DNA from: an uncultured Gammaproteobacteria bacterium | GTDB taxonomy: Bacteria > Patescibacteriota > Microgenomatia > UBA12405 > JAHJSD01 | DNA: 64,000 nucleotides | NCBI GenBank assembly: GCA_964428655.1 | Contig: CAYRYE010000001.1 | Coordinates: 312,406 to 376,405 of the forward strand | Reading direction: 5' to 3' | Part shown: positions 4,468 through 46,442 of the stretch, in pieces | Layout: every line of letters starts with the position of its first letter | Numbering within the stretch: position 1 is the stretch's first letter | Made by a program: the position numbers and the translations under genes | Notes under the pieces: model-generated | Database searches by the model: none | What the model saw: only the letters and a program-made list of their open reading frames with translations | Told to the model about the DNA's origin: nothing

Positions 4468-5325
4468 TTATTCCTCCTGCTGCCAATGGGGGTTAGCGAC
4501 TACCTGTAAATCTAAGAATATCTTTTTATTGGTAATGAGTTCTAATTCTTTTCTGGCAATGGTACCAATCTCTTTAATAGTTTTACCCTTTTTACCAATA
4601 ATAATTGGTTTATAGCGGTCAGAGCTGGTAAATATAGTTGCCTTAATATAAAATCGGTTTTCGTTCTCTTCAATTTCCTCGACTTTAACTCCGATAGTGT
4701 AGGGGACTTCTTGACGAAGGATTAAAAAGGTTTTTTCTCGAATTATTTCAGCAACAAATTCTTTAGGCGTGATGCCCAAAGCAGGAAACGCTTTAAAAGA
4801 TTCAGGATCAAAAATTGGTTCGCCTTCAGGCAGAAGCTCAAAAATTTTCTCTAACAGGCTTTTAAGGTGTTTGCCTTTTAGGGCCGAGATTTCTATCCAA
4901 GCATTGAATTCATCTTCTAAGAATTGATACTCATAAGTGTAGTTGGGTTTGTTGATATCGATTTTATTAAGAGCTAGAATTTTTGGTTTGTTAACTTGTC
5001 TTACTAATCCTAAAATTCGATTTTCCTCATCCCCCCGCGAGCGCGAACGGTCGATTAAATAAATAATCAAATCAGCGTTGGAAAGTTCTTTTTTGGCCAG
5101 ACTGGATATTTTTTTAGCCGCAGTGTTTTTTATTTTGGCAAAGACTCCGGGAGTATCCAAAAATATGATTTGACCCCTTTCATCCCAGTAAACTCCTTGG
5201 ATGATTTTTCGGGTGGTTTGAGGCAGGGGCGAAACAATAGAGATTTTCTTTCCCACTAAAGAATTAATCAGGGTAGATTTTCCTGAGTTTGGCCGGCCAA
5301 CAATGATAATTTTACCAACCTTCAT
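4468..5325 (-). CDS. era: GTPase Era
   Basis: G1 GRPNSGKSTL, G3 DTPG, NKID; C-terminal KH domain (VEIEENENRFYIKATIF...). Confidence 0.85.
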   Translation of the reverse strand: MKVGKIIIVGRPNSGKSTLINSLVGKKISIVSPLPQTTRKIIQGVYWDERGQIIFLDTPGVFAKIKNTAAKKISSLAKKELSNADLIIYLIDRSRSRGDEENRILGLVRQVNKPKILALNKIDINKPNYTYEYQFLEDEFNAWIEISALKGKHLKSLLEKIFELLPEGEPIFDPESFKAFPALGITPKEFVAEIIREKTFLILRQEVPYTIGVKVEEIEENENRFYIKATIFTSSDRYKPIIIGKKGKTIKEIGTIARKELELITNKKIFLDLQVVANPHWQQEE

Positions 5326-5418: not shown

Positions 5419-7806
5419 ATGGCGATACTTTTACCACCTAGAAAAATAACCCATCGAGAAGGAATTTTACCCTTAGTTCCGGTGAGGAATTTGGTCCCTT
5501 TTCCCCATGTTGATTTTCAGCTGATTTTTGGCCGGCCCAGGTCAACCGATGCCCTAATGAGCTCTTTTGAAAGTGATAAGCTGATAATGGTCGTGGCCCA
5601 AAAAGACTTTCGAGTTGATGACCCTAAAGATAAAGATCTTTATAAAATTGGTGTTATTTGCCGGGTTGAGCACGTTGTCCGCATAAACGGCACTGTTCAC
5701 GCCACCTTTAAAGGAATAAGGCGGGCTAAAATAATAGAGTTTATTGGCAAAGATCCCTATATGAGAGTTAAAGTTAAGCCGCTTAAGGAAATTGTTGAGA
5801 AGATAAGGGAAATCAAGGTCTTGGCCGATCATTTAATTCGTGATCTCAAAAAAGCTTTTAATTTGGGAAAGACTTTTGACCCCGGTATTTTAATGAAATT
5901 AAGCAGCGGGATAAGGGTTGGAGAGTTAACTGACCAAGTGGCTTTTTCCTTGGATCTTTCGGTGGGTGAAAAACAGAAGATTTTGGAAATTCTCCCTATG
6001 AAGTCAAGACTGAAAGAAATCGGTGAAAAGCTGGCTCATGAGATTAATGTTTTAAAACTTGACCAGACAATTGAGAAAAAAGCTCGAGATAAATTTGATA
6101 AGCAAATGAAAAGGGCTGTTCTTCAAGAAAAGAAAAAAGAGATTAATAAGGAGCTCAAGAGTATGGGTATTGGTCGGGGAGCAGACAGCGACTTGGAAGA
6201 ATTAGAAAAGAAAATTAAAGCCGCCGGGATGCCCATTGAAGTTAAAAAGAGGGCTAATCGAGAGTTAAAACAGTTAAGTAAAATGTCTTCTTTTGCTCCT
6301 CAGGCCAGTTATATTAGGACATATTTGGATTGGTTGGTGGAAATGCCTTGGAGTAAGAAAAGTCAAGTTAGCGTTAGTCTGAAAAAGTCAAAGAAGATTT
6401 TAGACGATGATCATTACGGATTAAAAGAAGTTAAAGAAAGAATGCTTGAATATTTAGCGGTGATGAAACTCCGTCAGAAAAATGACAAAGGCAAAAATGG
6501 GAAAAAAAAGCAAGCGGACGGAAATATTAATATCCTCTGTTTTATCGGCCCCCCGGGAGTAGGCAAGACTTCAATTGGCAAGTCTATTGCCCGAGCCTTG
6601 GGGAGAAAGTTTGTTAGGATTTCTTTGGGAGGCATCCGTGATGAAGCTGAAATTAGGGGCCACCGCCGAACTTATGTTGGCGCTCTGCCGGGAAGAATTA
6701 TTCAGGGGATTAAAAACGCCGGGACCAAAAATCCAGTTTTTATGCTGGATGAGATTGATAAAGTAGGCGCTGATTTTCGGGGTGATCCCTCCGCGGCTCT
6801 ATTGGAAGCCCTAGATCCGGAGCAAAACAAGGAATTCTCTGATCATTATTTGGAGATGCCTTTTGATTTATCAGAAGTTTTCTTTATTCTTACTGCCAAC
6901 GTGACTGATACAATTCCTTCGCCGTTGCTTGATCGTTTGGAAACAATTCGTTTTTCCGGCTACACTGAGGAAGAGAAACTTTCCATTGCTAAAAAACATC
7001 TTTTGTCAAAACAATTAGCAAGACATGGTCTTTCTTTAAAAGAGTTAGCCTTAGGAGACAAAGTCTTAAAAGAGATTATTAAGGCCTATACTCGGGAAGC
7101 AGGAGTAAGAGAATTGGAAAGAGTAATTGCTAGTGTTTGCCGCAAGGTGGCAAAAAGAATCGCTGAGAAGAAAAAGACTGATCCTAAAATCAATCTTCAA
7201 ATGCTCCGTCGTTTTTTAGGTCCGCGGAAATTTAGTCATCAACTCAAGGGCCAAAAAGATGAAGTGGGTGTTTCTACTGGTTTGGCCTGGACCCAAACCG
7301 GCGGAGATATTCTTTTTGTTGAAACAGCTTTGATGCCCGGCAAAGGCAAATTGGCCTTAACGGGCCAACTGGGTGATGTTATGAAAGAATCTTGTCGGGC
7401 CGCTTTGTCTTATGTTAGGAGTCATTGGAAAGAATTAGGAGTTAAAGATAAGGATTTTTTTAGCAAGTTAGACTTTCATATCCATGTGCCGGAAGGAGCA
7501 GTGCCCAAAGACGGCCCATCGGCAGGGGTAACGATTACCACTTCTTTGGTTTCGGCTTTGACTGGCAAACCGGCCAGGAAGAATGTTGGCATGACCGGAG
7601 AGGTTACTTTAAGGGGCAGGGTATTGCAAATTGGCGGACTCAAAGAGAAAGTTTTAGCGGCCCACAGAGCCGGCATTAAGACAATTATTCTGCCAAAAGA
7701 GAATAGAAAAGATCTTCGTAATGTTCCTAAGAAAGTCAAAGACAGCCTGAAATTTATCTTTATTGAAAAATCAGACCAAGCCTTAAAAGAAGCCTTAAGG
7801 AATTAA
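5419..7806 (+). CDS. lon: ATP-dependent Lon protease (LonA)
   Basis: N-terminal LON domain, AAA+ Walker A GPPGVGKTS, C-terminal protease domain with PSAG...GEVTLRG and catalytic K. Confidence 0.9.
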   Translation: MAILLPPRKITHREGILPLVPVRNLVPFPHVDFQLIFGRPRSTDALMSSFESDKLIMVVAQKDFRVDDPKDKDLYKIGVICRVEHVVRINGTVHATFKGIRRAKIIEFIGKDPYMRVKVKPLKEIVEKIREIKVLADHLIRDLKKAFNLGKTFDPGILMKLSSGIRVGELTDQVAFSLDLSVGEKQKILEILPMKSRLKEIGEKLAHEINVLKLDQTIEKKARDKFDKQMKRAVLQEKKKEINKELKSMGIGRGADSDLEELEKKIKAAGMPIEVKKRANRELKQLSKMSSFAPQASYIRTYLDWLVEMPWSKKSQVSVSLKKSKKILDDDHYGLKEVKERMLEYLAVMKLRQKNDKGKNGKKKQADGNINILCFIGPPGVGKTSIGKSIARALGRKFVRISLGGIRDEAEIRGHRRTYVGALPGRIIQGIKNAGTKNPVFMLDEIDKVGADFRGDPSAALLEALDPEQNKEFSDHYLEMPFDLSEVFFILTANVTDTIPSPLLDRLETIRFSGYTEEEKLSIAKKHLLSKQLARHGLSLKELALGDKVLKEIIKAYTREAGVRELERVIASVCRKVAKRIAEKKKTDPKINLQMLRRFLGPRKFSHQLKGQKDEVGVSTGLAWTQTGGDILFVETALMPGKGKLALTGQLGDVMKESCRAALSYVRSHWKELGVKDKDFFSKLDFHIHVPEGAVPKDGPSAGVTITTSLVSALTGKPARKNVGMTGEVTLRGRVLQIGGLKEKVLAAHRAGIKTIILPKENRKDLRNVPKKVKDSLKFIFIEKSDQALKEALRN

Positions 7807-8262
7807 TGAATATGTTAAAACTTGGTAATGTTTAGTTGAAGGTCCTTCTATTTTGTTAAAAAGAGACAAAAGGGAAACAAGGAAACTAACGAGATAATTT
7901 TCAGTCTTCGTGCCCACCACAGGTAGACGAGCCCCGGGGAGAAAGCCACCATATTTTCTTCCAGTCCGCATTCAAAGCATTCAAGATAAAATGAACGCCG
8001 CAAGGATCGTTCGTGGCTCAAAAGCCTCTCCTTCTGACATAAAAACAAGATTATCGTTATTCAGAAGATTGAACGATTTAACATAAAATCTCCCAAAGCC
8101 AACGCCTCCAAATATATGTTGTGTCAATTTGACAAATGAAAGGCAGTTGATATAATCAGTCTTGTTATGCGTATAATTACTGAGAAGAAAAGAGATTGGC
8201 TTTGCATTAAATTTTCCAAGTCCGATTTTTAGCGGGGGCATTATCCGTTTGGAGAAAACTAA

Positions 8263-35865: not shown

Positions 35866-36546
35866 CTAGGTTTTTTTCTTGATTTTTTTTGCTCGCCATT
35901 CAGTAATTTTTTTATGGTCTCCGGAAAGCAAGACTTTAGGGACTTTCCAGCCTTTAAAAACAGCAGGACGAGTGTAGTGGGGAAATTCCAATAGCGTTTG
36001 ATGATTTTGAGATTTTTGCAAGAGTTTTTTTAAGCCTGGGGAAAATGATTCTATTTCCGAAGCGCCTTCTTTTTTCAAAACTCCGGGGAGTAATCGAGAG
36101 ACAGTATCGACAACAACCATGGCTGGAATTTCACCACCAGAGAGGATGTAGTTGCCAATGGAAATTTCTTCATCAATCATGTGTTTTCTGACTCTTTCGT
36201 CTATGCCTTCGTAATGGCCGCAAATTAGAATTGTATGACTCGATTGAAATAATTTCTGCGCCATTTTCTGATTGAAAGTTTTTCCTTTGGGTGATAGTAG
36301 TATTATTTTTGATTTTTTTTCCCTTAGATTTTTTAAAGCATTAAAAATCGGTTCTGGCCGCAATATCATTCCTGGACTGCCGCCATAAGGGCGGTCATCA
36401 ACCGTACCCCTTTTATCAATCGCCCATTTTCTTAAATTATGAATCTTTATTTCAACAGCCTCAACCGACTGTGCCTTCTTTATCATGCTCCATTCTAAAA
36501 AAGGCGTGAATAATTCTGGAAAAAGAGTGATAATATCAATTTTCAT
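35866..36546 (-). CDS. trmD: tRNA (guanine37-N1)-methyltransferase
   Basis: MKIDIITLFPELF... SPOUT fold motifs, 226 aa. Confidence 0.9.
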   Translation of the reverse strand: MKIDIITLFPELFTPFLEWSMIKKAQSVEAVEIKIHNLRKWAIDKRGTVDDRPYGGSPGMILRPEPIFNALKNLREKKSKIILLSPKGKTFNQKMAQKLFQSSHTILICGHYEGIDERVRKHMIDEEISIGNYILSGGEIPAMVVVDTVSRLLPGVLKKEGASEIESFSPGLKKLLQKSQNHQTLLEFPHYTRPAVFKGWKVPKVLLSGDHKKITEWRAKKIKKKT

Positions 36547-36576
36547 ATTTCGATTTTAACATGCGAATGATATAAT

Positions 36577-36834
36577 TTGTTGGAAATGGCAGGGGAAGTT
36601 ATTATTGATCATATCGTTGTCGTCGAGAAGCCCGTGCCTAGACGGGACGTTCTTCCTTATCGGCTTTTACCAGGGGTATTAAGAAATAGGGTTAGAGGAA
36701 CAGTCTATCGGGAGGAGTCAAGATCACCCATATTGACGGCTCGTGGTGGGGAAATTGCTGCTAGTGTGGAAAGACATGTTTCTAGGAACTCCAGAAAAAG
36801 GGTTAAGGTAATTCCAGTACCAAGAAGGCGTTAA
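36577..36834 (+). other. GC-enriched, Arg-rich 85-codon ORF of uncertain nature (small basic protein or non-coding element)
   Basis: Composition differs from its surroundings; no motif. Confidence 0.15.
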
Positions 36835-36860
36835 TTTTCATTAGTTAATCCAAAGGGTTT

Positions 36861-37154
36861 TTGATTCTTTTAATGCTTATGGACCTGAAAAAGCTAAAAA
36901 TCATCAAATCTGACAAAAGAGGCGTTGTTTATGAGTGTGGCGAGGGCATGTATGTTTCGAGAAAAAAAGGAACAGTCACGGCAGATCATATCCATGATGA
37001 TTTTGGCGAAACGCTCTACTTAGTTAAGGGAGTAATTGAACTTACAGTTGGCAAAGAGGTCAAAAAGGTAGCGGCTCCGACAAAAATTGCGATTCCCAAG
37101 AAAATTTATCACAAAATTTTAGCTCTTTCAGATATAGAATTTTTGAAAATGTAA
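36861..37154 (+). CDS. small cupin-fold protein
   Basis: G(x)5HxH-like segment ADHIHDDFGETLYLVKG..ELTVG. Confidence 0.35.
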   Translation: MILLMLMDLKKLKIIKSDKRGVVYECGEGMYVSRKKGTVTADHIHDDFGETLYLVKGVIELTVGKEVKKVAAPTKIAIPKKIYHKILALSDIEFLKM

Positions 37155-37171
37155 GCGGTTGAGTAAAAAAC

Positions 37172-37358
37172 TCAAGGGGACGCTGCGCTCTCACTCAAAT
37201 TTTAAACCATTTTTCGTTCGCCCTCGGATAACACAGTATATGCAGTTCACTTCATTGCATTCGTTCACCCAAATTATTTACTCCCTTTATGGTTAAGTGA
37301 TAAAATATATCATAAAGCTCGTTTAATAACTTTGCATATACTGAAACGTTAGATGAAA
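37172..37358 (+). repeat. cassette-associated repeat, copy A (about 190 bp)
   Basis: Shares caaggggacgYtgcgct, cgcccTCGnAnAACACAGTATAT...GTTCnnTTCnTTGCATTCnnTCAnCCCAAATT and CATATACTGAAACGTTAnAnGAAA blocks with copy B. Confidence 0.7.
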
Positions 37359-37384
37359 CAAATTTCATCACTAAGTATAAATTC

Positions 37385-38047
37385 ATGAAAAAATTAGTTT
37401 TACATAGCGATCAAATTAGCGGAAAAACTCAAGTGGATGAGGCCTCCTTAAAATTGTTCGCTTCTAATAAGCCAAAAATTGCATACATCCCATCGCAATC
37501 TGATCTTGAAAGAAAATATTTCAATGAAAGGGTTGAATGGTATAAGCAATTTGGTGTAACTGGTTTGTTCTATTTTGATGTAGACAAGGAGTACGATGAG
37601 GGAAAAATTGATGAATTATTAGCCTGCGATGCAATTTTTCTATCTGGAGGCAATACATACTTTTTCCTTAATTCGCTGAAAAAACGTAATTTTTTGCCAG
37701 TGTTGAGGAAATATGTTGAAAAAGACGGGGTTTTAATTGGTGTTAGTGCTGGAAGCATGATAATGTCTAAAACTATAGCCGTAACTACTATTGACGAGGA
37801 TATTGGCGGTGATCAAAACACGATTGGACTTAAAGATTTTTCAGCTTTAGGATTAAATGATTTTGAATTTTTCCCTCATTTTGATAAAAACGAAGAAATA
37901 TCCAAAAGATTGAAAGAATATTCCAGGAAAAGCAAATCAGTTATTTACGCATGCAAAGATGGCGATGGGATTATCGTCAATGATGACGATATGAAATTTT
38001 TTGGCGAAGTGCTGAAAATAGAGAATGGTGAAATTAAAAGGGCATAG
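37385..38047 (+). CDS. peptidase S51 family (PepE / cyanophycinase-like) protein
   Basis: SGGNTYFFL, GVSAGSMIM and FFPHF segments match PepE GGGNTF / GWSAGA / HF. Confidence 0.6.
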   Translation: MKKLVLHSDQISGKTQVDEASLKLFASNKPKIAYIPSQSDLERKYFNERVEWYKQFGVTGLFYFDVDKEYDEGKIDELLACDAIFLSGGNTYFFLNSLKKRNFLPVLRKYVEKDGVLIGVSAGSMIMSKTIAVTTIDEDIGGDQNTIGLKDFSALGLNDFEFFPHFDKNEEISKRLKEYSRKSKSVIYACKDGDGIIVNDDDMKFFGEVLKIENGEIKRA

Positions 38048-38409
38048 TGAAGATTACAGGAGTAATAAATTGTCAAAGTAAGAACCAGTTATTTATAATT
38101 GATTTTTGGCAATTTAGTCTTTGCTGTTATGGAGCGAGAAAGAATCCTGAAGAAGATTGCAAAGCAAGAAGCGGCTATTCGGTTAGATAGCACGCGATTT
38201 GCAGGCCATATTCTAAAAAGGCATAGGGGCAAACCGGCGACAGCTTGCCATGAGTGCAACAATTTTCGCCAAGCACTGCGGGGAGGCAGGGAGCTTTTGG
38301 GTAGTTATCGAAGAGAATTACAACAACAATGAATTGCCAAAATCAAGACAGGAGTTGATTTTTGGTATTTCGCCTAACAAGGTATATCTGGTGAACTTGA
38401 CATAGTGCC

Positions 38410-38475
38410 AGGTTCAGCCCAAATCCTTTGACAAGCTCAGGACTTCAGATATACCTGAACGTTGTCCGACATATT
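38410..38475 (+). repeat. degenerate copy of the cassette repeat (part 2/3 only)
   Basis: ...gcccaaatcc...tacctgaacgttgtccgacatatttttt resembles acccaaatt...actgaaacgttagatgaaa. Confidence 0.35.
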
Positions 38476-38493
38476 TTTTAAGATTTTTTCAGG

Positions 38494-39249
38494 ATGTTTA
38501 CAATCAACAATTATCCCAAATCGTATGCCAAAACAAAACCAGGTTTTTATAGGTTGCGAGGTTGGCAAACATCGGACATTGATATTGAACAAGTAGAATC
38601 AAAATTTTGGAAATTCATTGCTTCATTCGCAGATTCAAAACAGCCAAGAAAATTTTTTAAAACCTATGAGTTTATGGATGCCGGGTGGGAATGGTCGGTT
38701 TTTCGTAAAGATAACCAAACAGTTGTCAAAATACCTGCCGGAATCTTTCTCGAAGTTAATGACAAGATATATCTTAAAAATACAGAATTTGCCTATCAAA
38801 AAATTCTTGATTATTTCCCGGCGAAATTTGTCGCCCAAACTTCCTTCGAAAGATCCGATGGATTAAACATAATGGAGCAGGACTATATTGTGGGCAAGGA
38901 CAACGAAAGTATTGGGTACAATACGAAAAATCTCGAATTATTAAAGAATATAAAAAAATTTCTTGAATCTGCGTTGCAAATGTTGAATGATTACCAATGG
39001 CTTCCTGACTTTGATATTCGTAGAGCTTCTGGAGGGTTTAGACTACGAAATGTAATTATTCAAAAAAACATTCCCAAAATTATTGATTTTACCGCCTACT
39101 ACGATGTTTATCGACTATGCCCGCAGAGAACCGTAGAGGAAGTTAAAGATAAAAGGGGGCACATTGTTGATTTTCTTAATTGGATTAACAAGAAGAAAAA
39201 AATCTCAAAAAATACGCAAGGGGACGTTGCGCTTTCGCAAAAATTGTAA
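38494..39249 (+). CDS. hypothetical protein (251 aa); its last 11 codons lie inside repeat copy B
   Basis: C-terminal QGDVALSQKL* is encoded by the part-1 block of the repeat; the same block in copy A would encode QGDAALSLKF*. Confidence 0.4.
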   Translation: MFTINNYPKSYAKTKPGFYRLRGWQTSDIDIEQVESKFWKFIASFADSKQPRKFFKTYEFMDAGWEWSVFRKDNQTVVKIPAGIFLEVNDKIYLKNTEFAYQKILDYFPAKFVAQTSFERSDGLNIMEQDYIVGKDNESIGYNTKNLELLKNIKKFLESALQMLNDYQWLPDFDIRRASGGFRLRNVIIQKNIPKIIDFTAYYDVYRLCPQRTVEEVKDKRGHIVDFLNWINKKKKISKNTQGDVALSQKL

Positions 39250-39415
39250 GAAATGATTGTACAATTTTGTGCTCACCCTCGCACAACACAGTATATAGGG
39301 TTCGGTTCGTTGCATTCCCTCAACCCAAATTGCCCATACACTATTGCGATGTTAAAATCATCTTATCGCAATTACGTTTCTCGCAACTTCCCATATACTG
39401 AAACGTTATACGAAA
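39217..39415 (+). repeat. cassette-associated repeat, copy B
   Basis: About 75% identity to copy A over about 200 bp. Confidence 0.7.
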
Positions 39416-39470
39416 TTCGCATTCTAGAATTTTTTATTGAAATTGGCTTGATTATTAATTAAACTAAATT

Positions 39471-39920
39471 ATGTCAAAAGAGACGGGAAAACCTAAAGAA
39501 GTGGGAAGATTCTTGGTCGCTGTTGGGGCAATTATTGAGCATTCCCCAACAGGTAAAATATTACTGTTGAAAAGAAGCCCCAAAAAGGACTTTTCTGGTG
39601 GTATTTGGGAATATATTACTGGCCGAATGAATCAGTTCGAAGAACCAAGGGATGCCTTGAGAAGAGAAATTAAAGAAGAGGCTGGAATTGAAGTTACAAT
39701 AATTAAGCCAACTTCAACCTACCATATTTTCAGGGGTGAAAGAACTGCAGAAAACGAACTTGTTGGTATAATGCACTGGTGCACAGTGGATTCAGACAAG
39801 ATTGTATTATCTGAAGAGCATACAGAATATAAATGGGTTTCTCCAGAAGAAGCATTGAAAATGATTCAAAAGCCCAGTATGCAAAATGATATAAAGGCAT
39901 ACATGCGTGAGAAAGAATAA
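39471..39920 (+). CDS. NUDIX hydrolase
   Basis: Nudix box GRMNQFEEPRDALRREIKEEAGI. Confidence 0.75.
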   Translation: MSKETGKPKEVGRFLVAVGAIIEHSPTGKILLLKRSPKKDFSGGIWEYITGRMNQFEEPRDALRREIKEEAGIEVTIIKPTSTYHIFRGERTAENELVGIMHWCTVDSDKIVLSEEHTEYKWVSPEEALKMIQKPSMQNDIKAYMREKE

Positions 39921-39937
39921 AAAATTAAGAATACGAA

Positions 39938-39998
39938 CTCAAGGGGGGGTATTGTACTTTCGGTTGGCTCATTTGTTACACACACTCGACCCATATTG
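39938..39998 (+). repeat. cassette-associated repeat, partial copy C (part 1 plus a truncated part 2)
   Basis: aactcaagggggggtattgtactttcgg...ttcatttgttacacacactcgacccatattgg. Confidence 0.5.
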
Positions 39999-40054
39999 GC
40001 TATTTTCTCTGCCAGCCGTGGTATAATTAGCCATGCAGGCAGTTATTAATATCA

Positions 40055-40780
40055 ATGGAGCGCTATCTCACCAAAGAGGTGATTAAGTATATGGTAGGAC
40101 AACAGGGAGGAAGTGAAAAAAGTAAAAGTGGTTATTCCTATACTACTATTTCGGGATCCTGCGTCCCCATGGCCACTTCGGCAGAGCATTTCAGATTAGA
40201 TTTGCATACTCTGTCTTTTTTACGCCCAAGGGACCGGGCCAGACATGGAGGAATGAGTCCTTCTATTACAGGTGGAAGACTTAGTAGGCCACCAAGTGGT
40301 AGATTGGCAACTCGGGGTTGATGAAGTTATTATCTTTGTGTCATTGTTATAGGAAATAAACACAGTGACTTTTTCGTTAGGTAAAATTTATTTATCCTAC
40401 CTTCTTACTTTTCGAAGACTCATTTCTGTATCACATTTTTTACATCGGGCACGGGTAACTTTGCCTGGCGTTATCACAACATCAAATCCATACCTTTCAA
40501 GCCGGCTTTTGGTAAATGTTCTCTGGGTCCATCTTGTTGTAACTGGTCCGCCAGCACCCTCACTCGCTCCAATATTAAACATCAGTTGACTTAAGGGGCA
40601 ACGTTCTCTTTCGGACCTGTTCACAGGATGTCTGGGTGGGCCAGCAGGACAACGCCTACTTCTTATTGCTGGATAAGTGGGAAGGTATTTAAATTTACTC
40701 ATAAAAACATTATAACATGGTTGGAAAGGCAAAATAAACTTCTCTGTTGACGCTCCACACTGCACTTTTCGGATCACCTA
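40055..40780. other. GC-enriched (about 48-50%) block with mutually overlapping, low-plausibility ORFs on both strands; a candidate structured RNA or a degraded horizontally acquired gene
   Basis: Sits between repeat copies C and D like a cassette; the minus-strand 126-aa ORF (Cys-containing, Arg-rich) and the plus-strand 88-aa ORF both have atypical composition. Confidence 0.3.
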
Positions 40781-40894
40781 ATATAGTATAGCTAGTTCAT
40801 TTCATTGCACTCGCTCGACCCATATTGGATAACTTTGTAGTAAAATAAAATTATAAAATGCCCACATTAGATACACACGAACGTTAGATGAAAT
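40749..40894 (+). repeat. cassette-associated repeat, copy D
   Basis: gacgctccacactgcacttttcgg...ACCTAATATAGTATAGctaGTTCAttTCATTGCAcTCGcTCgACCCAtATT...cacacGAACGTTAGATGAAA. Confidence 0.6.
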
Positions 40895-40985
40895 TTTGAA
40901 AAGCCAAAAACAAGATTGGATTAATACCCAAAGACATAATTTAGGCATTGATTAGTTGCTAATTTTGGCCTTCCAAAGCATCACG

Positions 40986-41738
40986 ATGAAATATGAAGAA
41001 AAATTTTTTGAGGCAGATGGTATAAGATTAAAATATATTACTGCAGGACAAGGCGAGCCTTTATTGTTTTTGCATGGGGGTGGCGTCAATGCCCTAACGT
41101 ATATAAAAAATTTTGAACTGCTATCTCAAAAATACTTTGTTATAGCTCCGGATATCCCTTGTTTTGGTCAATTCAGCGTTCCGAATGAATTATGGAGTTT
41201 TGATGACTTCGCAAATTTTTTTTCAAAGTTTATCGACTCATTGACTGTCAATAACATTATTCTAGTCGGTCATTCTTTTGGCGGCGGTATTGCTATTAGC
41301 TTAGCTCCGAAAAATAAAAAAATTTCTAAACTGATCTTGCTGGATTCTGCGGGGATTCCGCCTGATTATAGTTCTTTGAAAGTGATTTATTTGCTTTTCG
41401 TTAAAACATGTCATGGCTTGTTCTTATTCCAGAATAAGATTTTATCTTTAGTAATGCTTCGCGATTTTTTTAAAGAATTTTTTAGACACTTATTTTCATT
41501 ACCTCAAATTTGCAAAATTGTGAAAAATTCAGTTTTTAGAGAATACGATGTATTTAAGAAAATTAGCCAACCAACACATATTTTCTGGGGCAATACTGAT
41601 GAAGTATTTCCGAAAAAATCTGCTCAAAAAATGAATCAACTTATTAGTAATTCAAAATTAGAATATATAGAAGGAAACCATGATTGGTGTTTGCTGATGC
41701 CTCAAGAATTTTTTAAAATGATATCTAAAGTGACATAA
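40986..41738 (+). CDS. alpha/beta-fold hydrolase
   Basis: HGGG oxyanion region (LFLHGGGVN), nucleophile elbow GHSFGGG, C-terminal His region. Confidence 0.65.
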   Translation: MKYEEKFFEADGIRLKYITAGQGEPLLFLHGGGVNALTYIKNFELLSQKYFVIAPDIPCFGQFSVPNELWSFDDFANFFSKFIDSLTVNNIILVGHSFGGGIAISLAPKNKKISKLILLDSAGIPPDYSSLKVIYLLFVKTCHGLFLFQNKILSLVMLRDFFKEFFRHLFSLPQICKIVKNSVFREYDVFKKISQPTHIFWGNTDEVFPKKSAQKMNQLISNSKLEYIEGNHDWCLLMPQEFFKMISKVT

Positions 41739-42592
41739 TGTGTGCCAAACTTTTTAAAGTGAGAAATAATAATCAAAAAAGGAAGATTTTGATATTGTGG
41801 CCGCTTCTAATCTTCACAATATTAGTTGTTCTTACTGATTCGTTTATCGAGGCTTTTGGCTATAAACCTTTGCCCATAATAAGTTTTTTAAAAATTTTAA
41901 TGCCTATTGCAGTGGGCTTGTTACACATCTCAATAGTTTTTACTTCTACCAGAGGGTTGCTGTTTATTTTGCTTTCATCATTAACAGGCTTATTTTTCGA
42001 AGTTGCTGGAGTCAAATATGGAGTAGTGTTTGGCGGACATTATGAATACAATAACCAATATTTTGGACTAACTCTTTTTAATATTCCGTTGTTAGTTCCT
42101 ATCTATTGGACTGTTTTTATTTACATTGGTTATTCGCTGGTAACGTCATTTTTAGTATGGATCAACAAGAATAAACCAACTATAAGCAATGACGGGTGGG
42201 CGTTATTGCCAATATTGGTTATTTTTGACGGGCTTGTTGTTACTGCTATTGATATTTTCATGGACCCTCTAATGGTTTACCAAAAAAGATGGTTTTGGCG
42301 GGAAGGCGGGCCATTTTTTAACATCCCAATTGGCAACTTTGTTGGGTGGTTTGCCGTTACCGCTATTGCAACAGGTATGTTTAGGATTTTTGAGTACTTG
42401 TTTCCCCAGAGACCGCGCCAATTTGATAAATCAATTTATCTTGTTACCACTTTTAGTTACGCCGCTTTGTGTGTATCGCTTTTTGTTTCCGCAATCGGTA
42501 TTCGCTTGCCGCAGTTAGCTTTACTGGGTGTATTCGTAATGATGCCCACAGTAATTATAAACCTTCTTTATTTCAAAAACTGGAGGGGCTAG
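41738..42592 (+). CDS. hypothetical polytopic membrane protein
   Basis: Seven or more hydrophobic helices; start overlaps the upstream stop (ATAATG). Confidence 0.4.
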   Translation: MCAKLFKVRNNNQKRKILILWPLLIFTILVVLTDSFIEAFGYKPLPIISFLKILMPIAVGLLHISIVFTSTRGLLFILLSSLTGLFFEVAGVKYGVVFGGHYEYNNQYFGLTLFNIPLLVPIYWTVFIYIGYSLVTSFLVWINKNKPTISNDGWALLPILVIFDGLVVTAIDIFMDPLMVYQKRWFWREGGPFFNIPIGNFVGWFAVTAIATGMFRIFEYLFPQRPRQFDKSIYLVTTFSYAALCVSLFVSAIGIRLPQLALLGVFVMMPTVIINLLYFKNWRG

Positions 42593-42658: not shown

Positions 42659-44488
42659 ATGAGTCATAAATATAGAAAAGCTCCTCGAGGGTTAGGAGTT
42701 GCTGGTAAGGATAAGAGTGTGCTTCTTTTTCATCAGGAAACTGACCTTCGAGTCGATATTAGTTCAGACGGATTTAATTTCAGTTCTTATGGCGAAGAAC
42801 CGGTAATAAAAAGGAAAAATGGAAAAAGGGAAAACGCAAAGGACTGTTCTGATTTTAGAATTAGCAAATTAGACAAAAATTATCTTCTCGTCTATAGACT
42901 AAAGACTAAAAAAGAAACTTGCCTTTGCGGAGCCCTTTCAAAAGATTTAGTTCATTGGGAAAAAATAGGAAAGTTTTCCGAGATTAAAGAAACAGGCGTG
43001 GTGGTGCCCGACTATAAATGTGACGGAGAATTTGTGCTTTACTTTGGCAAAAAATCAATAAGGATTGCTTTTTCAAAAGATTTTAAAACATGGAGAATAT
43101 TAAAAAAGCCGCTCCTTCGCCTATCAGGTGAGTTATTAAGGGAAGATTCTTCCGCCAAAATGGGGAATGTAATCATAACCGATGAGGGGATTTTATTAAT
43201 CTACTATTTGATCAAGGGCAAAAAAAAGTCAGCCAAATATTCTATAAGGGCTGTTCTTTTTGACAAAAAAGATCCCGAAGAACCCTTGTGGTGGTCTGAT
43301 AGAATAATTTGGCAACAAGCGGAAAGTCAAGAGCCAATTAATCCCATTGGCGTTATAAAGCGAGATGACAAATTGATTTCTTATTGGCAGGCTGAAAGTG
43401 GAGCAATTTTTGCTCTTAGCCACCCCTATCTTAAATTGCTTCAGCAAGATTTAAAGCAACCCCTCCTTTCTCTTATTTTTAAGAAATTTAGAGAAAATCC
43501 GATTTTAAAGCCAGTTGCTGAAAACGCTTGGGAATCCAAACTTGTTCTTAACCCTGCCGCCATTTACGAAGAGGGCAAAGTTCACATTATCTACCGAGCA
43601 GTGGGTGATAAAAATGTGTCTGTTTTTGGCTATGCCGCTAGCAAGGATGGAATTCATATAGACGAGAGGCTTAAAAGTCCTGTTTATGTCTTCAGGGAGC
43701 CATTTGAGACCAATTCCCAGGCTCCAAACTGCCGTTCTTCTTATATATCTGGAGGAGGAAGCGGAGGCTGTGAAGATCCAAAACTAACCAGAATTGGCGA
43801 CAGGCTTTATATGACTTACGTTGCTTGGGATGGAAGTAGTCCTCCTCGAGTTGCTCTCACTTCCATAAAAATTGATGATTTTTTAAACCGGAAATGGAAC
43901 TGGGAGCGCCCAGTTTCGATATCGCCTCCGGGTGAAATGCACAAAAACTGGGCGATTTTCCCAGAAAAAATAAACGGCAAATACGCTGTTTTACATAGTC
44001 TTTCTCCAGAGATTCTGATTGACTATGTCGACAGTTTGGAATTCGATGGAAATACCCATATTAATAGCCACTATCATCCATTAGGCCGGAAAAACTGCTG
44101 GGATAATTACGTAAGGGGGGTAGGACCTCCTCCGATTAAAACAGAGGAGGGATGGCTTGTTCTTTATCACGCTATGAATAATCGAGATCTTGGAAGATAT
44201 AAATTGGGAGCAATGATTTTAGACCTTAAAACTCCCACCAAGACATTATGCCGCTCAAGAGCGCCCTTGTTAGAGCCGGATAAGCTCTACGAGAATAAGG
44301 GCTTTAAGCCTGGTGTTGTCTATGCTTGTGGTGCAGTGGTAATAGATGACCGGTTGTTTGTTTATTATGGAGGGGCGGATACTGTTGTGTGTGTAGCTCA
44401 TACCCGATTAAGTCTCCTATTAAATCAACTTAAAAACCAGGAACATATCCAGCTGGAAACAGAAGTTTCAGACTATGATTTAAACTGA
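42659..44488 (+). CDS. tandem two-domain GH130-like (beta-mannoside phosphorylase family / DUF377) protein; the N-terminal domain is divergent
   Basis: C-terminal half has FRENPILKP...NPAAIYEEGKVHIIYRAVG...GGCEDPKLTRIGDRLYMTYVAWD; the N-terminal half lacks the EDPR box. Confidence 0.6.
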   Translation: MSHKYRKAPRGLGVAGKDKSVLLFHQETDLRVDISSDGFNFSSYGEEPVIKRKNGKRENAKDCSDFRISKLDKNYLLVYRLKTKKETCLCGALSKDLVHWEKIGKFSEIKETGVVVPDYKCDGEFVLYFGKKSIRIAFSKDFKTWRILKKPLLRLSGELLREDSSAKMGNVIITDEGILLIYYLIKGKKKSAKYSIRAVLFDKKDPEEPLWWSDRIIWQQAESQEPINPIGVIKRDDKLISYWQAESGAIFALSHPYLKLLQQDLKQPLLSLIFKKFRENPILKPVAENAWESKLVLNPAAIYEEGKVHIIYRAVGDKNVSVFGYAASKDGIHIDERLKSPVYVFREPFETNSQAPNCRSSYISGGGSGGCEDPKLTRIGDRLYMTYVAWDGSSPPRVALTSIKIDDFLNRKWNWERPVSISPPGEMHKNWAIFPEKINGKYAVLHSLSPEILIDYVDSLEFDGNTHINSHYHPLGRKNCWDNYVRGVGPPPIKTEEGWLVLYHAMNNRDLGRYKLGAMILDLKTPTKTLCRSRAPLLEPDKLYENKGFKPGVVYACGAVVIDDRLFVYYGGADTVVCVAHTRLSLLLNQLKNQEHIQLETEVSDYDLN

Positions 44489-44489
44489 A

Positions 44490-46442
44490 ATGATCAATGT
44501 TAGGCGCTTCCAAAAAAACCCGATCCTCGCTCCCAATAGAGAGAATAGTTGGGAGGCGGAAGCAGTGTTTAATGGCAGCATTGCTAGGGAAGGAAGTAAA
44601 TTCCACTTCCTTTACCGAGCAACGTCTTCTTTGCAGAATTATCATGGTTTAGATATAAAATTATCTTCAATCGGCCATGCAACAAGCAGTGACAGGATCC
44701 ATTTTGAAAATAGGAGGCCTTTTATTGTTCCCGAATACGAATGGGAAAAATTTGGCTGCGAGGATCCAAGGGTTACCAGGTTGAATGATAAATATTTTAT
44801 TTTCTACACTGCTCTTTCGGATTATCCTCCAACACCCTCGGGCATTAAAGTCGGAGTGGCAATAACTGAAGATTTCAGTCAGGGAGTAGAAAAACATCAA
44901 GTGACTCATTTTAATTCAAAAGCAATGGCTCTTTTTCCGGAAAAAGTGGCCGGGAAAATTGCCGCTGTTTTGACTGTAAATACAGACAAACCGCCGGCAA
45001 AAATTGCTCTTGCTCTTTTTGATCACGAGGAAGAAATTTGGTCAAAGGAACATTGGTCTAATTGGCTGCTTTCTCTAGATAAATATGTGATTCCACTGCT
45101 AAAGCAAGAAAGCGATCATGTAGAAGTTGGCGCCGCTCCGGTTAGAATAGAACAGGGCTGGCTGTTGATTTATTGTTATATTGAAAATTATTTTTCTTCT
45201 CGGCCAACCTTTGGAATAGAAGCTGTTTTACTTGATTTGGAAAACCCGTTGGAGATATTGGGTAGGACAGCAGAACCACTTTTAATCCCGGAAAAAAAGT
45301 ATGAGTTGCATGGCGATGTGCCCAATGTTATTTTTCCTTCTGGCGCTCTTGTTCAGGATAAAGAGTTGTGGATTTATTATGGCGCCGCCGACACCACTTG
45401 CTGTCTGGCAAAAGTGAGAGTAAAAGATGTTCTTCAGGGGATGACGCTTAAGAAACAAGTTAAATTTTCGCCAAGCAAGGTTAAATCGGTAAAGTTGGAA
45501 AGACACAAAGAGAATCCAATAATTCAGCCAAATCCGGAACATAGTTGGGAGTCCAAATACACTTTTAATCCGGCGGCTATTTATGAAAATGGGAAAGTTC
45601 ATATTATTTATCGGGCGATGGGGGATGAGGATACTTCAGTTTTTGGTTATGCCTCAAGTCAAGATGGAGTTCATCTGGAGGAACGTTTGGCCGAACCAAT
45701 CTATTTACCTAGGGAAGATTTTGAGAAAATAACTGGGCCAAAAGGAGATTCTGGTTGTGAAGACCCAAGGATCACTAAAATCGATGGTAAATTCTATGTA
45801 TGCTACACTGCTTTTGATGAGAAAAATCTGCCTCGTGTTGCCTTGACTTCAATTGAAGTTGATGATTTTCTAAATCACCGCTGGAATTGGGAAAGACCAT
45901 TTCTAATTTCCCCTCCTGAAGTGGCCGATAAAAACACTTGCATTTTATCAGAAAAAATAAAAGGCAAATATGTTTTGCTCCATCGGCTGGATCCCTGCAT
46001 TTGGATAGATTTTGTTGATGATTTGCGTTTTGAAAATGAACGATGGCTTAGTGGAAAAATACTGCTTGATCCAAGAACAAATAAGTGGGACAGTAGAAAA
46101 ATTGGCATTGGACCGCCTCCTGTTAAAACTCAAGATGGTTGGCTTTTGATTTACCATGGTCTTTCCAAGAAAGATAATAAGTATAGACTGGGAGCAGTCC
46201 TGCTGGACTTAAAAAATCCTAGTAAAGTTATTGCCAGACTGAATCGGCCTATTCTTGAACCTGAAGCGGATTATGAGAAGGAAGGCTTAAGGCCGGGTAC
46301 GGTATTTGCCTGCGGGGCAGTAGTGATTAAGGGTAGGCTGTTCGTTTATTACGGAGCGTCTGATCACGTGGTTGCTGTTGCCTCAGTTAGTTTAAACGAA
46401 ATTATGGTTCAGTTAAAAAGAAGACTTACTCCAAATTTTTAA
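44490..46442 (+). CDS. tandem two-domain GH130-like phosphorylase-family protein (both domains canonical)
   Basis: Two copies of the xNPILxP...FNxxxxxxGxxxHxxYRA...GCEDPR[VI]T...Y..YTA pattern (GCEDPRVTRLNDKYFIFYTA and GCEDPRITKIDGKFYVCYTAFD). Confidence 0.65.
   Translation: MINVRRFQKNPILAPNRENSWEAEAVFNGSIAREGSKFHFLYRATSSLQNYHGLDIKLSSIGHATSSDRIHFENRRPFIVPEYEWEKFGCEDPRVTRLNDKYFIFYTALSDYPPTPSGIKVGVAITEDFSQGVEKHQVTHFNSKAMALFPEKVAGKIAAVLTVNTDKPPAKIALALFDHEEEIWSKEHWSNWLLSLDKYVIPLLKQESDHVEVGAAPVRIEQGWLLIYCYIENYFSSRPTFGIEAVLLDLENPLEILGRTAEPLLIPEKKYELHGDVPNVIFPSGALVQDKELWIYYGAADTTCCLAKVRVKDVLQGMTLKKQVKFSPSKVKSVKLERHKENPIIQPNPEHSWESKYTFNPAAIYENGKVHIIYRAMGDEDTSVFGYASSQDGVHLEERLAEPIYLPREDFEKITGPKGDSGCEDPRITKIDGKFYVCYTAFDEKNLPRVALTSIEVDDFLNHRWNWERPFLISPPEVADKNTCILSEKIKGKYVLLHRLDPCIWIDFVDDLRFENERWLSGKILLDPRTNKWDSRKIGIGPPPVKTQDGWLLIYHGLSKKDNKYRLGAVLLDLKNPSKVIARLNRPILEPEADYEKEGLRPGTVFACGAVVIKGRLFVYYGASDHVVAVASVSLNEIMVQLKRRLTPNF

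Follow-up and report, generated by a model that had tools for sequence, protein, structure and literature searches.

The DNA which lies, in the window analysed here (the whole stretch of 64 kb), between trmD and a gene pair formed by an alpha/beta hydrolase and a carotenoid-synthase-like gene, is probably an orphan gene-cassette array, that is, a group of attC-like sites clustered as in a CALIN, in the absence of a nearby integrase. The host is a tiny-genome, Shapirobacteria-like CPR bacterium. The integron-cassette or CALIN reading had been advanced in a first-pass annotation, and is sustained by the presence of boxes, covarying arms, a length in the attC range, the location of the sites on one strand, a cassette-size spacing, and junctions at GTT triplets. 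The attC label rests on the anatomy of the sites (boxes, arms, length) as tested in this analysis. The term integron-like seems apt, while membership in the canonical integron family would go beyond the evidence. Provided that the sites are regarded as attC, the region qualifies as a CALIN, a term which requires two or more attC sites on the same strand, spaced by less than 4 kb, and no intI in the vicinity. It does not correspond to a complete integron, as no adjacent intI resides in the window, and the recombinase found at related loci is devoid of the additional domain. The earlier remark that the window lacks intI holds for tyrosine recombinases of any kind, none of which was detected in the 64 kb by phmmer and tblastn.

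The elements of the array are listed in Table 1. Sites were searched by R1, a covariance model trained on 14 copies of the repeat, all from genomes other than the window. In the 64 kb, R1 detects exactly four sites (A, E, B and D), which all lie on the plus strand; their starts are 909 to 1495 bp apart, and the core pattern has three matches in the window versus 0.00 expected. The five repeat copies named in the first-pass annotation all exist, on the plus strand. However, the copy at 38410-38475, described as degenerate, corresponds to E, a complete site featuring a perfect 11-bp stem, the sequence of which is compensated relative to A and B. The degenerate copy is D, which retains an intact core and GTTAGAT box, but has arms with hardly any pairing, and no hairpin is formed by either strand upon ssDNA folding. 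Remnant C has neither TAAC box nor arms, and is missed by R1 even with filters off. One more block-1-like stretch (40590-40615) is found inside the GC-richer unit located between C and D. This unit has no match in Pfam, NCBIfam or Rfam, and is probably made of former cassettes, fused once their sites decayed. The gene identities originally assigned (S51 peptidase, NUDIX, alpha/beta hydrolase) agree with Pfam. Judging from sequence, the alpha/beta hydrolase is taken as the right flank of the array, rather than as a demonstrated cassette. The stop codon of this gene overlaps the start of the next one (41738-42592; TAATG), and R1 finds no site downstream of it within the window. At the opposite end, neither sites nor recombinases were found, by the R1 scan and the recombinase search, between trmD (35866-36546, minus strand) and the leading ORFs. 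The genes located within 4 kb of the array are trmD, PAP2, the alpha/beta hydrolase and GH130, and the array, identical in order in five assemblies, looks static.

Table 1. Elements of the cassette array and of its right flank (positions in the window).
Element	Position	Strand	Description
Leading unit, upstream of site A	36577-37154	+	85-aa ORF (36577-36834) and 97-aa cupin ORF (36861-37154; Cupin_2 match in Pfam)
5' extension of site A	37172-37221	+	block 1 of the first-pass annotation, CAAGGGGACGCTGCGCTCTCACTC...CGTTCGCCCTCGG
attC-like site A	37222-37360	+	GATAAC-A-CAGTATATGCA-core-loop-TGCATATACTG-AAAC-GTTAGAT; R1 81.4 bits, E 6e-20; predicted crossover GTT at 37348-37350
Cassette 2 cargo	37385-38332	+	S51 peptidase (37385-38047; Peptidase_S51 match in Pfam, E 1e-28) and 77-aa ORF (38099-38332)
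attC-like site E	38368-38473	+	CCTAAC-A-AGGTATATCTG ... CAGATATACCT-GAAC-GTTGTCC; R1 44.4 bits, E 1.6e-9; core diverged; GTT at 38461-38463
Cassette 3 cargo	38494-39249	+	251-aa protein; family present in Shapirobacteria
5' extension of site B	39217-39276	+	block 1; the 251-aa ORF ends inside it
attC-like site B	39277-39417	+	CACAAC-A-CAGTATATAGGG ... CCCATATACTG-AAAC-GTTATAC; R1 69.4 bits; GTT at 39405-39407
Cassette 4 cargo	39471-39920	+	NUDIX hydrolase (Pfam NUDIX, E 2e-19)
Remnant site C	39938-40002	+	block-1-like stretch fused directly to the 3' part of the core
GC-richer unit	40003-40771		GC 0.43-0.48; ORFs of 88 aa (plus strand, 40055-40321) and 126 aa (minus strand, 40397-40777)
attC-like site D	40772-40895	+	last site of the array; CCTAAT/GTTAGAT boxes; R1 45.8 bits; many unpaired positions; GTT at 40883-40885
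alpha/beta hydrolase	40956-41738	+	taken as right flank of the array; Pfam match

Proceeding 5' to 3', each site opens with a ..TAAC box and an 11-nt arm. The conserved core (29 nt, unpaired) comes next, then a short stem with covarying pairs, and a variable loop; the arm complementary to the first one follows, and 2-4 nt separate it from GTTA... The resulting structure is an imperfect hairpin in which ..TAAC pairs with GTTA.. (R box), and the core is unpaired on the 5' arm. In a set of 98 distinct copies, changes on both sides were found at all pairs of the arm stem (11/11; 94% paired) and of the second stem (4/4; 97% paired). Overall, 88.8% of the cells are paired, versus 67.5% in shuffles and at most 45% with slid partners, pairs having been counted on an alignment fitted to the model. 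The sequence of the arms varies from copy to copy, even within one genome, but complementarity is kept. AAC is found in 93, and GTT in 90, of the 98 distinct copies. The box consensus of the family is R-Y-W-T-A-A-C ... G-T-T-A-W-R-Y, and only about a third of the copies carry a complete RYYYAAC (33/91) or a complete GTTRRRY (30/91). The distance R''-R' has a median of 101 nt, and ranges from 79 to 172 nt; from a minimum of 14 nt, the terminal loop reaches 68 nt or more. Spacers are asymmetric (1 nt on one arm, 2-4 nt on the opposite one), and unpaired residues include the conserved 29-nt segment on the R''/L'' arm, and CTT on the other. Of the attC landmarks mentioned in the first-pass annotation, R''/R' boxes and arms are in place, but single extrahelical bases are mostly missing: single-base bulges are absent from the arm stem in most copies, and an additional A is present in the 5' arm of site B.

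The repeat unit of about 200 bp originally described is real, but consists of two parts, a hairpin site measuring 106-141 nt as model match in the window, and a 5' extension, conserved and about 50 nt long, which corresponds to block 1. The hairpin sites of the window fall in the interval of roughly 57-141 nt set for attC. The 5' extension carries a second copy of the core motif, and small TTCG-type hairpins. In 50 of 92 distinct copies, the TAAC box is preceded, at a constant distance on its 5' side, by the motif NCGYTRCRCTY (background 0.016 per 80 nt), and a near-identical variant of the 5' extension of site A is found in two other loci, L010 and L029. A diversity-generating retroelement (TR/VR) was also considered, and discarded because the differences between A and B span all four bases, and no reverse transcriptase is encoded by the neighbouring ORFs.

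The alignment and folding of the copies, envisaged at the outset as a check, gave an attC-like fold for A, B and E, not for D. As ssDNA, A, B and E are more stable in the bottom than in the top strand; both strands of A can fold, and the bottom strand of B folds with a z-score of -3.1. These data bear on the hypothesis that the repeats work at the RNA level, either as 3'-UTR terminators/stabilisers, or as 5' leader/promoter modules (the latter also contemplated in the first-pass annotation), and have been spread by duplication without being recombination sites. The hypothesis, in keeping with the co-orientation of repeats and genes, the TTCG-type hairpins, and the promoter-like TGnTAAAAT elements found at equivalent positions in the loops of A (37277-37306) and B (39330-39358), looks very improbable. 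The number of promoters detected by the whole scan is not above chance (19 sites, versus 13.5 +/- 3.2 expected). No Rfam 15 family matches the window at gathering score, or the interval 36500-41000 at E up to 1. Among the cells of the arm stem, A.C (20) is no rarer than G.T (11). The lack of a G-U excess on the plus strand, the higher stability of the bottom strand, and the lack of Rfam matches favor the notion that the repeats are DNA sites. RNA elements would also hardly account for the conservation of a near-identical core across archaeal and bacterial phyla beside unrelated genes, or for the fact that the junctions between common and differing DNA coincide with the GTT box.

Such junctions are provided by related loci. 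In L004, L006 and L007/L030, a common gene and site are followed by sequences diverging right after CGTTAG / CGTTAT. The same pattern is found in the group L016/L042/L034/L057, where divergence starts after GTTATATGAAATT. As gene and repeat are in common, and the DNA differs after GTT, the repeat that follows a gene belongs to it, which is also the rule in integron cassettes. The first-pass annotation had placed a repeat in front of each gene, and the breakpoints invert the assignment. On the basis of these comparative junctions, strand exchange may be placed at G|TT. In the model proposed, one DNA strand would fold during replication or transfer, and a tyrosine recombinase would exchange strands at G|TT, so that the unit would leave as a circle, and be inserted at another place. 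The array may have been assembled through such excision and insertion events. It is now plausibly largely frozen: the 64 kb encode no recombinase, and decay has affected D and C, as well as the orthologue of B in a sister genome (L084).

In seven distinct, related loci (L010, L027, L066, L067, L070, L071, L075; Pacearchaeota-like) a divergent xerA-like gene is followed by an 11-8-11 site with a GTTAT-type box, and by one to three co-oriented cassettes ending in R1 matches. In the eighth locus, L086, the xerA-proximal site is present, and the contig breaks ahead of any cassette. The first cassette beside xerA in L010 also encodes an S51 peptidase, but shares only 25% identity with the one in the window, and is a different cassette. 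Recombinases adjacent to the arrays are close relatives of IntI: they match the VchIntIA structure 2A3V (E 3.5e-38), with the same catalytic C-terminal motifs, and reach 206-208 bits on TIGR02249, whose family cut-off is higher (265 bits). The TIGR02249 match is split into two stretches, and profile positions ~184-235 are missing, which implies that the IntI-specific insert is absent. Their best score is with archaeal XerA (NF040815, 243-245 bits; 4A8E, E 5e-46). The occurrence, beside the arrays, of a XerA-like gene without the extra domain of integron integrases suggests a Xer-driven, integron-like platform. Because DPANN arrays start at an 11-8-11 site with a GTTAT box beside a divergent xerA-like gene, we infer, though with less confidence, that the cognate enzyme of the whole site family is a XerA-type recombinase lacking the integron-specific domain. 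The xerA-proximal site could also simply be the chromosomal dif site.

According to a different view, the array is part of a canonical integron, and is served in trans by an IntI protein possessing the I2 / additional domain, the gene of which would reside in another part of the genome; the proximity to archaeal XerA would be incidental, arrays being located beside dif and xerA. The main attC landmarks are all present in the site, and the 11-8-11 layout is compatible with a core site of dif type. The xerA-like protein (65-82% identity among the top 120 matches) looks like the product of a conserved housekeeping gene. CALINs are commoner than complete integrons, and archaeal attC sites are recombined by IntI1 in E. 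coli (PMC9668308). In spite of this, the view seems unlikely. With IntI1 as query, 61 loci and the window yielded no IntI-type protein, and the only three matches obtained all lack the IntI-specific insert. The arrangement of xerA and array recurs in seven distinct loci, with the GTTAT junction box common to the xerA-proximal site and to the cassette sites, and the unpaired features of the site differ from those read by the extra domain of IntI.

An orphan, CALIN-type array is the preferred interpretation, and differs from known systems in several respects. Canonical attC sites have conserved boxes and a variable loop, and their strand choice is set by extrahelical bases on the R''/L'' arm, along with the unpaired central spacer. 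In the present family, in contrast, the 29 loop-proximal nucleotides are conserved almost to the base across phyla, and the arm sequence is free. A 29-nt conserved bulge takes the place of single extrahelical bases, the 3' arm of the top strand carries small unpaired stretches (the 2-4-nt spacer and CTT), and the 5' extension with its second core-motif copy has no counterpart in canonical attC. The closest known systems are CALINs and sedentary chromosomal integron arrays, including the archaeal CALINs described by Ghaly et al. 2022 (PMC9668308). Points of likeness are the same-strand arrays of short ORFs, mostly co-oriented and unrelated in function, with an imperfect-palindrome site behind each; the ..AAC / GTT.. 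boxes, the covarying stems, the size of the sites (79-172 nt), and the junctions at GTT; the resemblance of sites within a genome, and the absence of an integrase within 4 kb. Attribution to a CPR bacterium sets the array apart from known CALINs, and no report of such arrays in CPR was found in the literature searched. In MAGs of Pacearchaeales, Woesearchaeales and Methanosarcinales, IntegronFinder has identified clusters of attC without integrase (PMC9668308), which may correspond to the present family.

Similarities extend to Xer/dif systems and IMEX elements. Related DPANN loci host a single Xer-family gene directly beside an 11-8-11 inverted-arm site, and pile up foreign units in tandem on one side of it. 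The CTX phage integrates at dif as a ssDNA hairpin, and is a precedent for a folded single strand as donor site; in turn, XerS acts with difSL, located beside its gene. IMEX elements are however phages or islands, not arrays of promoterless single genes each carrying its own hairpin site, and the window has neither a xer gene nor an 11-8-11 site.

The repeat family has been identified in 60 other contigs, in hosts including DPANN archaea, Methanosarcinales, Marinisomatota MAGs and Cloacimonadota MAGs, the taxonomy of archaeal and bacterial MAG contigs hinging on binning. The gap between sites has a median of 686 bp, and the longest inter-site ORF is co-oriented in 29 of 40 intervals. Many metagenome copies, inverted 11-nt arms and an intergenic position are features one would expect also of selfish, non-autonomous repeats of MITE, REP or PATE type, which a transposase would move, and which would land between genes by chance. 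The MITE alternative had been raised in the first-pass annotation, together with the notion that copies in both orientations would speak for it. Strands are mixed in none of the 60 contigs and, among the loci with at least two sites, in none of 27; no target-site duplications were seen at the ends. Moreover, the arms differ within one genome yet are complementary, whereas ends bound by a transposase should be conserved. Only four copies, all clustered, are present in 64 kb, and no transposase is encoded nearby in the window. Selfish repeats appear on these grounds an extremely improbable explanation.

Cassette 3 provides a glimpse of the behaviour of these units in CPR genomes. Block 1 had been regarded as the 3' coding end of the 251-aa gene. 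Homologues of the protein are however mostly ~237 aa long, and the closest one (L079) ends with a TAA stop codon at the position of a TCA in the window, so that in the window the ORF runs 14 codons into the repeat; read-through accounts for the extra codons. More distant homologues lie in ordinary operons without sites. The homology between the window and L079 begins ~6 nt past the GTT of site E, and the gene in L079 is found in a different context, followed by a truncated site. In L084, the homologue is linked to a NUDIX gene, as in the window, and the block formed by the two genes is relocated inside a syntenic neighbourhood. Comparison of these contexts suggests that the units may be, or have been, mobile in CPR genomes.

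Integrons are the textbook example of a machine that captures and shuffles single genes. Long thought limited to some bacterial phyla, they have recently been extended to Archaea. The gene set analyzed here is best explained, with good though not full confidence, as an orphan cassette array that arose through site-specific recombination at folded hairpin sites and has since partly decayed. The integron-like interpretation of the first-pass annotation is upheld, with corrections. The repeat blocks on which it was founded were recovered by inspection of the 36500-42500 region and by a repeat finder, each of them on the + strand. Within the window the core pattern GTTCNNTTCRTTGCAYTCNNTCRACCCA is matched three times (up to 3 mismatches), versus 0.00 expected. 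R1, a covariance model of the repeat trained on 14 copies all coming from genomes other than that of the window, detects over the 64 kb exactly four sites, A, E, B and D, on the + strand only; elsewhere in the window scores stay below 11 bits, filters off. Copy E, earlier taken as degenerate, is actually complete and forms a perfect 11-bp stem, the degenerate one being D. The outer parts of blocks 2 and 3 of the repeat are complementary, and change together among window copies, the arm pairs being CAGTATATGCA/TGCATATACTG in A, CAGTATATAGGG/CCCATATACTG in B and AGGTATATCTG/CAGATATACCT in E; in all three sites AAC marks the 5' side and GTT the 3' side. The + strand of the repeat is markedly G-poor in two intervals (GC skew about -0.22, versus positive values in the flanking genes), and looks pyrimidine-rich by eye across the family.

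Coordinates of repeat sites, cassette units and associated features (window positions unless a contig number, L, is given; unit spans assume crossover between G and TT, at 37348, 38461, 39405 and 40883)
Feature	Position or span	Strand	Remarks
Site A	37222-37360	+	R1 81 bits
Site E	38368-38473	+	R1 44 bits; complete
Site B	39277-39417	+	R1 69 bits
Copy C	39938-40002	+	partial, remnant without arms
Site D	40772-40895	+	R1 46 bits; degenerate
Unit 1	up to site A		85-aa ORF, cupin
Unit 2	1113 bp		S51 peptidase, 77-aa ORF, site E
Unit 3	944 bp		251-aa protein, site B
Unit 4	1478 bp		NUDIX, remnant C, GC-richer stretch, site D
G-poor intervals	37100-37400; 39200-39400	+
Promoter-like elements	37277-37306; 39330-39358		extended -10
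126-aa ORF	40397-40777	-	no family match
Block-1-like stretch	40590-40615	+	overlapped by 126-aa ORF
GH130-type pair	42659-46442		609 and 650 aa
Near-identical segment	L004 2122-2468; L006 5607-5953		gene end and site
Repeat of ~70 nt	L079 6290-6360; 7900-7970		5' of two genes
xerA-proximal site	L010 ~865-925
xerA-proximal site	L066 ~7900-7990	-
xerA-proximal site	L067 ~4600-4690	-
xerA-proximal site	L070 ~7900-7990	-
xerA-proximal site	L071
xerA-proximal site	L075
xerA-proximal site	L086 1-70
Reversed site halves	L075 ~7700-7800; L066 ~7640-7760		minus-strand reading

A search of public collections with the core pattern retrieved 6 contigs among species-representative genomes, from Methanosarcinales (two contigs), Woesearchaeota, Nanoarchaeota, Neomarinimicrobiota and Cloacimonadota MAGs, along with 54 metagenome contigs; viral contigs searched for the core hosted zero copies. 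One layout is common to every copy. A 5' extension with the motif ..CGYTGCRCTCTC.. (block 1) is followed by (C)RYWTAAC, an A, an 11-nt arm, of which about ten sequences were seen, and the unpaired 29-nt core GTTCRCTTCGTTGCACTCGYTCACCCAAA. Next come a 4-6-bp stem of variable sequence (TTTTTG/CAAAAA, TTCAGC/GCTGAA, TTGC/GCAA and others), a variable loop, CTT, the complementary arm, 2-4 nt and GTTAWRYGMAAT. R1 matches amount to 110, 98 of which are distinct. In the distinct copies 88.8% of cells are paired, versus 67.5% in shuffles and at most 45% when the 3' partners are slid, counts biased towards structure by the fitting of the alignment to the model; arm covariation is plain already in the raw table of copies. 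Changes on both sides were observed at 11 of 11 arm pairs (94% paired) and at 4 of 4 inner-stem pairs (97% paired). Among R-box pairs the inner four (TAAC/GTTA) are invariant and the outer four loose, as expected if crossover within the R' box mixes halves of different sites. AAC is found in 93 and GTT in 90 of the 98 copies, and the R''-R' length varies from 79 to 172 nt around a median of 101 nt. None of the 27 loci with at least two sites mixes strands; in these loci the inter-site gap has a median of 686 bp, and in 29 of the 40 intervals the longest intervening ORF points the same way as the sites.

In the arm stem, the cells that a + strand RNA would turn into G-U (11) do not outnumber the A.C cells (20), which would be G.T on the bottom strand. 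Single-stranded DNA folds of sites A, B and E contain the arm stem on either strand, and the bottom-strand fold, which gains R-box pairs, is the more stable (-11.9 versus -10.2 kcal/mol for A, -18.9 versus -14.2 for B, -14.5 versus -12.0 for E). Site D yields no such hairpin on either strand. Rfam gave zero matches, either on the whole window at gathering score or on the array region at E up to 1, as did a tRNA/tmRNA scan. Single-sequence RNA folds of the 220-260-nt units are non-significant alone (z -0.7 to -1.9), and the structural signal emerged only through the comparison of copies. A DGR was considered and rejected, substitutions not being adenine-specific. A promoter/terminator scan was overall not above chance. 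Two extended -10 promoter-like elements, TGATAAAAT and TGTTAAAAT, occupy matching places in the variable loops of A and B, which are longer than in most family members, and might drive downstream cassettes.

Among 92 distinct copies, 50 carry the motif NCGYTRCRCTY about 25-35 nt 5' of the TAAC box (background, 0.016 per 80 nt), and the block 1 variant of the window, AACTCAAGGGGACGCTGCGCT, is found also in L010 and L029; on these grounds block 1 is part of the repeat. It repeats, as a second and direct copy, the motif contained in the core. Block 1 had been read as the 3' coding end of a cassette gene, and is indeed in frame at A (QGDAALSLKF*) and at B (QGDVALSQKL*). A conserved protein C-terminus is nonetheless rejected, because in other phyla the motif also precedes sites that follow unrelated genes, and because homologues of the 251-aa protein, mostly about 237 aa long, stop before it. 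The closest of them (L079, 85% identity) has TAA where the window reads TCA, and as a result the window ORF runs 14 codons into the repeat. The overlap reflects a lost stop codon, rather than a designed feature.

Related loci reveal where the units begin and end. L004 (Neomarinimicrobiota), L006 (Cloacimonadota) and L007/L030 have in common the 3' end of a FAD-binding-domain gene and its site, at 95-98% identity, and run on into three unrelated sequences, splitting directly after CGTTAG or CGTTAT. Similarly, L016, L042, L034 and L057 are identical up to and including GTTATATGAAATT, and divergent beyond. These breakpoints imply that a unit is made of a gene and then a site, and that units meet within the GTT box, like integron cassettes; the order is thus the reverse of that previously assigned, in which a repeat preceded each gene. 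The L004 and L006 segments are 97.7% identical over 347 bp in two MAG-assigned bacterial phyla, denoting either a recent cassette transfer or a binning error. In the window four units are delimited. The GC-richer stretch of unit 4 includes two ORFs with no family match and a further block-1-like piece, and the unit probably derives from two or three former cassettes, merged once their sites decayed. Pfam matches bear out the S51 peptidase, NUDIX and alpha/beta hydrolase assignments, and add a cupin; Pfam and NCBIfam gave zero matches for the 85-, 77-, 88- and 126-aa ORFs. The alpha/beta hydrolase located 3' of D, correctly named, had been counted as an array unit, but is treated here as flank, since no site follows it and its stop codon is overlapped by the start codon of the gene that comes after. 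The S51 peptidase is not the S51 cassette of L010, the two being only 25% identical. The 126-aa ORF, the only sizeable minus-strand ORF of the array, may be no real gene. Just past the array flank, two adjacent large paralogues with GH130-type domains form a segment absent between trmD and tsaD in a relative (L084).

The window, from a contig that measures 428 kb in JGI and 548 kb in NCBI, encodes TrmD and TsaE, denoting a bacterial host, and the 251-aa protein homologues bearing names belong to Candidatus Shapirobacteria, a CPR lineage. In L079 the homologue resides in another neighbourhood (RtcB, inositol phosphatase, PIN toxin), and is followed by a truncated site composed of block 1, GACAACA and CGGATATACG, with nothing beyond; homology to the window starts about 6 nt past the GTT of site E. 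L084 is syntenic (LTD, fn3, CAP, PAP2, TrmD ... TsaD, TsaE), but hosts the 251-aa homologue and NUDIX block between tsaD and tsaE, not beside trmD. In the L084 copy of site B the core is gone, and the end of the 3' arm and the GTT were lost to a deletion of 11 nt. More distant homologues (L081, L083, L085) are found in ordinary operons with zero sites, and gene order is identical in five assemblies of the window organism. The picture is of an old array, formerly mobile and now mostly frozen. L079, a Shapirobacteria relative, also carries another repeat, CCAAATGCTATAATCRCTTAATAATTTTAAAATATTTTCAMAACTGGTTCGTATAGTTGCTAG, one copy of which occupies the exact position of site E of the window; it may represent a further kind of recombination site, or else a promoter module.

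In its workings the array resembles integron cassette arrays, and it qualifies as a CALIN, a cluster of attC sites without integron integrase, provided its sites count as attC. These depart from canonical attC sites by a conserved 5' extension, an asymmetric central spacer, and a conserved 29-nt unpaired segment in place of single extrahelical bases; arm sequence is free, whereas the loop-proximal core is conserved across domains. CALINs without IntI have been described in Pacearchaeales, Woesearchaeales and Methanosarcinales MAGs (PMC9668308). In the literature searched no description was found of the xerA link, of the conserved-core site family or of such arrays in CPR, which is not proof of novelty. 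The window thus presents an integron-type architecture in a CPR bacterium, and its nearly base-identical core ties it to arrays in DPANN archaea, Methanosarcinales, Marinisomatota and Cloacimonadota. Such identity is direct sequence evidence of a common cassette pool, drawn on by ultra-small and probably symbiotic bacteria and archaea living in the same habitats. Even if only a fossil CALIN, the array remains useful as a record of genes that entered a reduced genome in the past.

No tyrosine recombinase was found in the 64-kb window by phmmer with an approximate IntI1 query, or by tblastn with three Xer-like proteins, and no 11-8-11 docking site either. The lack of intI noticed earlier is confirmed, and the array is not a complete integron. 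The IntI1 query had three matches among all ORFs of 61 loci (L010, L027, L050). In L010 and L027 the gene diverges from the array, about 150-700 nt from the first cassette. The best NCBIfam match of the three proteins is archaeal XerA, NF040815 (245, 243 and 190 bits; cut-off 220); integron integrase TIGR02249 scores 206, 208 and 181 bits (cut-off 265), in two stretches, profile positions ~184-235 missing. Alignment confirmed that the IntI-specific insert is absent from recombinases near related arrays; lacking the additional domain, they do not qualify as IntI. Among solved structures the closest is P. abyssi XerA 4A8E (E 5e-46), and VchIntIA 2A3V ranks behind it. The L010 protein has thousands of homologues; the best 120 are 65-82% identical, and those named among them come from Pacearchaeota, Nanoarchaeota or unclassified archaeal MAGs. 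Six loci with homologues, each from a different genome, were compared (L066, L067, L070, L071, L075, L086). In five, R1 sites lie on the strand opposite xerA, 1-4 kb upstream, every gene in between runs in the direction of the sites, and downstream of xerA come housekeeping genes (topA, SMC, dnaJ, a GTPase); in the sixth, L086, the contig ends 113 nt upstream of xerA. In these Pacearchaeota-like contigs a compact site adjoins the start of the xerA-like gene, with perfect 11-nt inverted arms, an 8-nt A/T-rich centre, 3 nt and a GTTAT-type box; L027 has a looser version. The arms are genome-specific (ATCATATCATA, ATGGTATCATG, AGATTATCAAT, ATGGCATCATG), and the box (GTTATACGAAATT in L010) matches that closing cassette sites. 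This site could be an attI-like docking site, a chromosomal dif site, or both.

A tentative, rather doubtful extension is a second, Xer-based kind of integron, native to DPANN archaea, exchanging cassettes across domains with CPR bacteria. A XerA-type recombinase without the IntI I2/additional domain would act at an 11-8-11 site beside its gene, closing in the GTTAT box of the cassettes. The latter would carry hairpin sites in which the 29-nt single-stranded segment and the upstream motif copy replace extrahelical bases for recognition and strand choice, and would pass to co-occurring CPR bacteria, ending as orphan arrays like that of the window. Recombination between dif and a folded single strand is within the reach of Xer enzymes, as CTX phage integration exemplifies, and the dif site of XerS adjoins its own gene; these precedents make a Xer-driven cassette platform mechanistically plausible. 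If true, the system would either be a living relative of the transition from Xer to IntI or have invented the integron principle independently. PMC4792948 and PMC7790495 attribute the use of folded single strands by integron integrases to the gain of the I2 helix; should the XerA-type neighbour be the working enzyme, this account could be put to the test in a natural system.

Two further features were noticed near the xerA-proximal site. A ATGATAAC-like box is found about 12 nt upstream of it. In L075 and L066, the interval that separates the xerA-proximal site from the first gene holds the two halves of a cassette-type site in swapped order: AACTT, 3' arm and CATA come some 60-80 nt ahead of TAACA, the matching 5' arm and the core.
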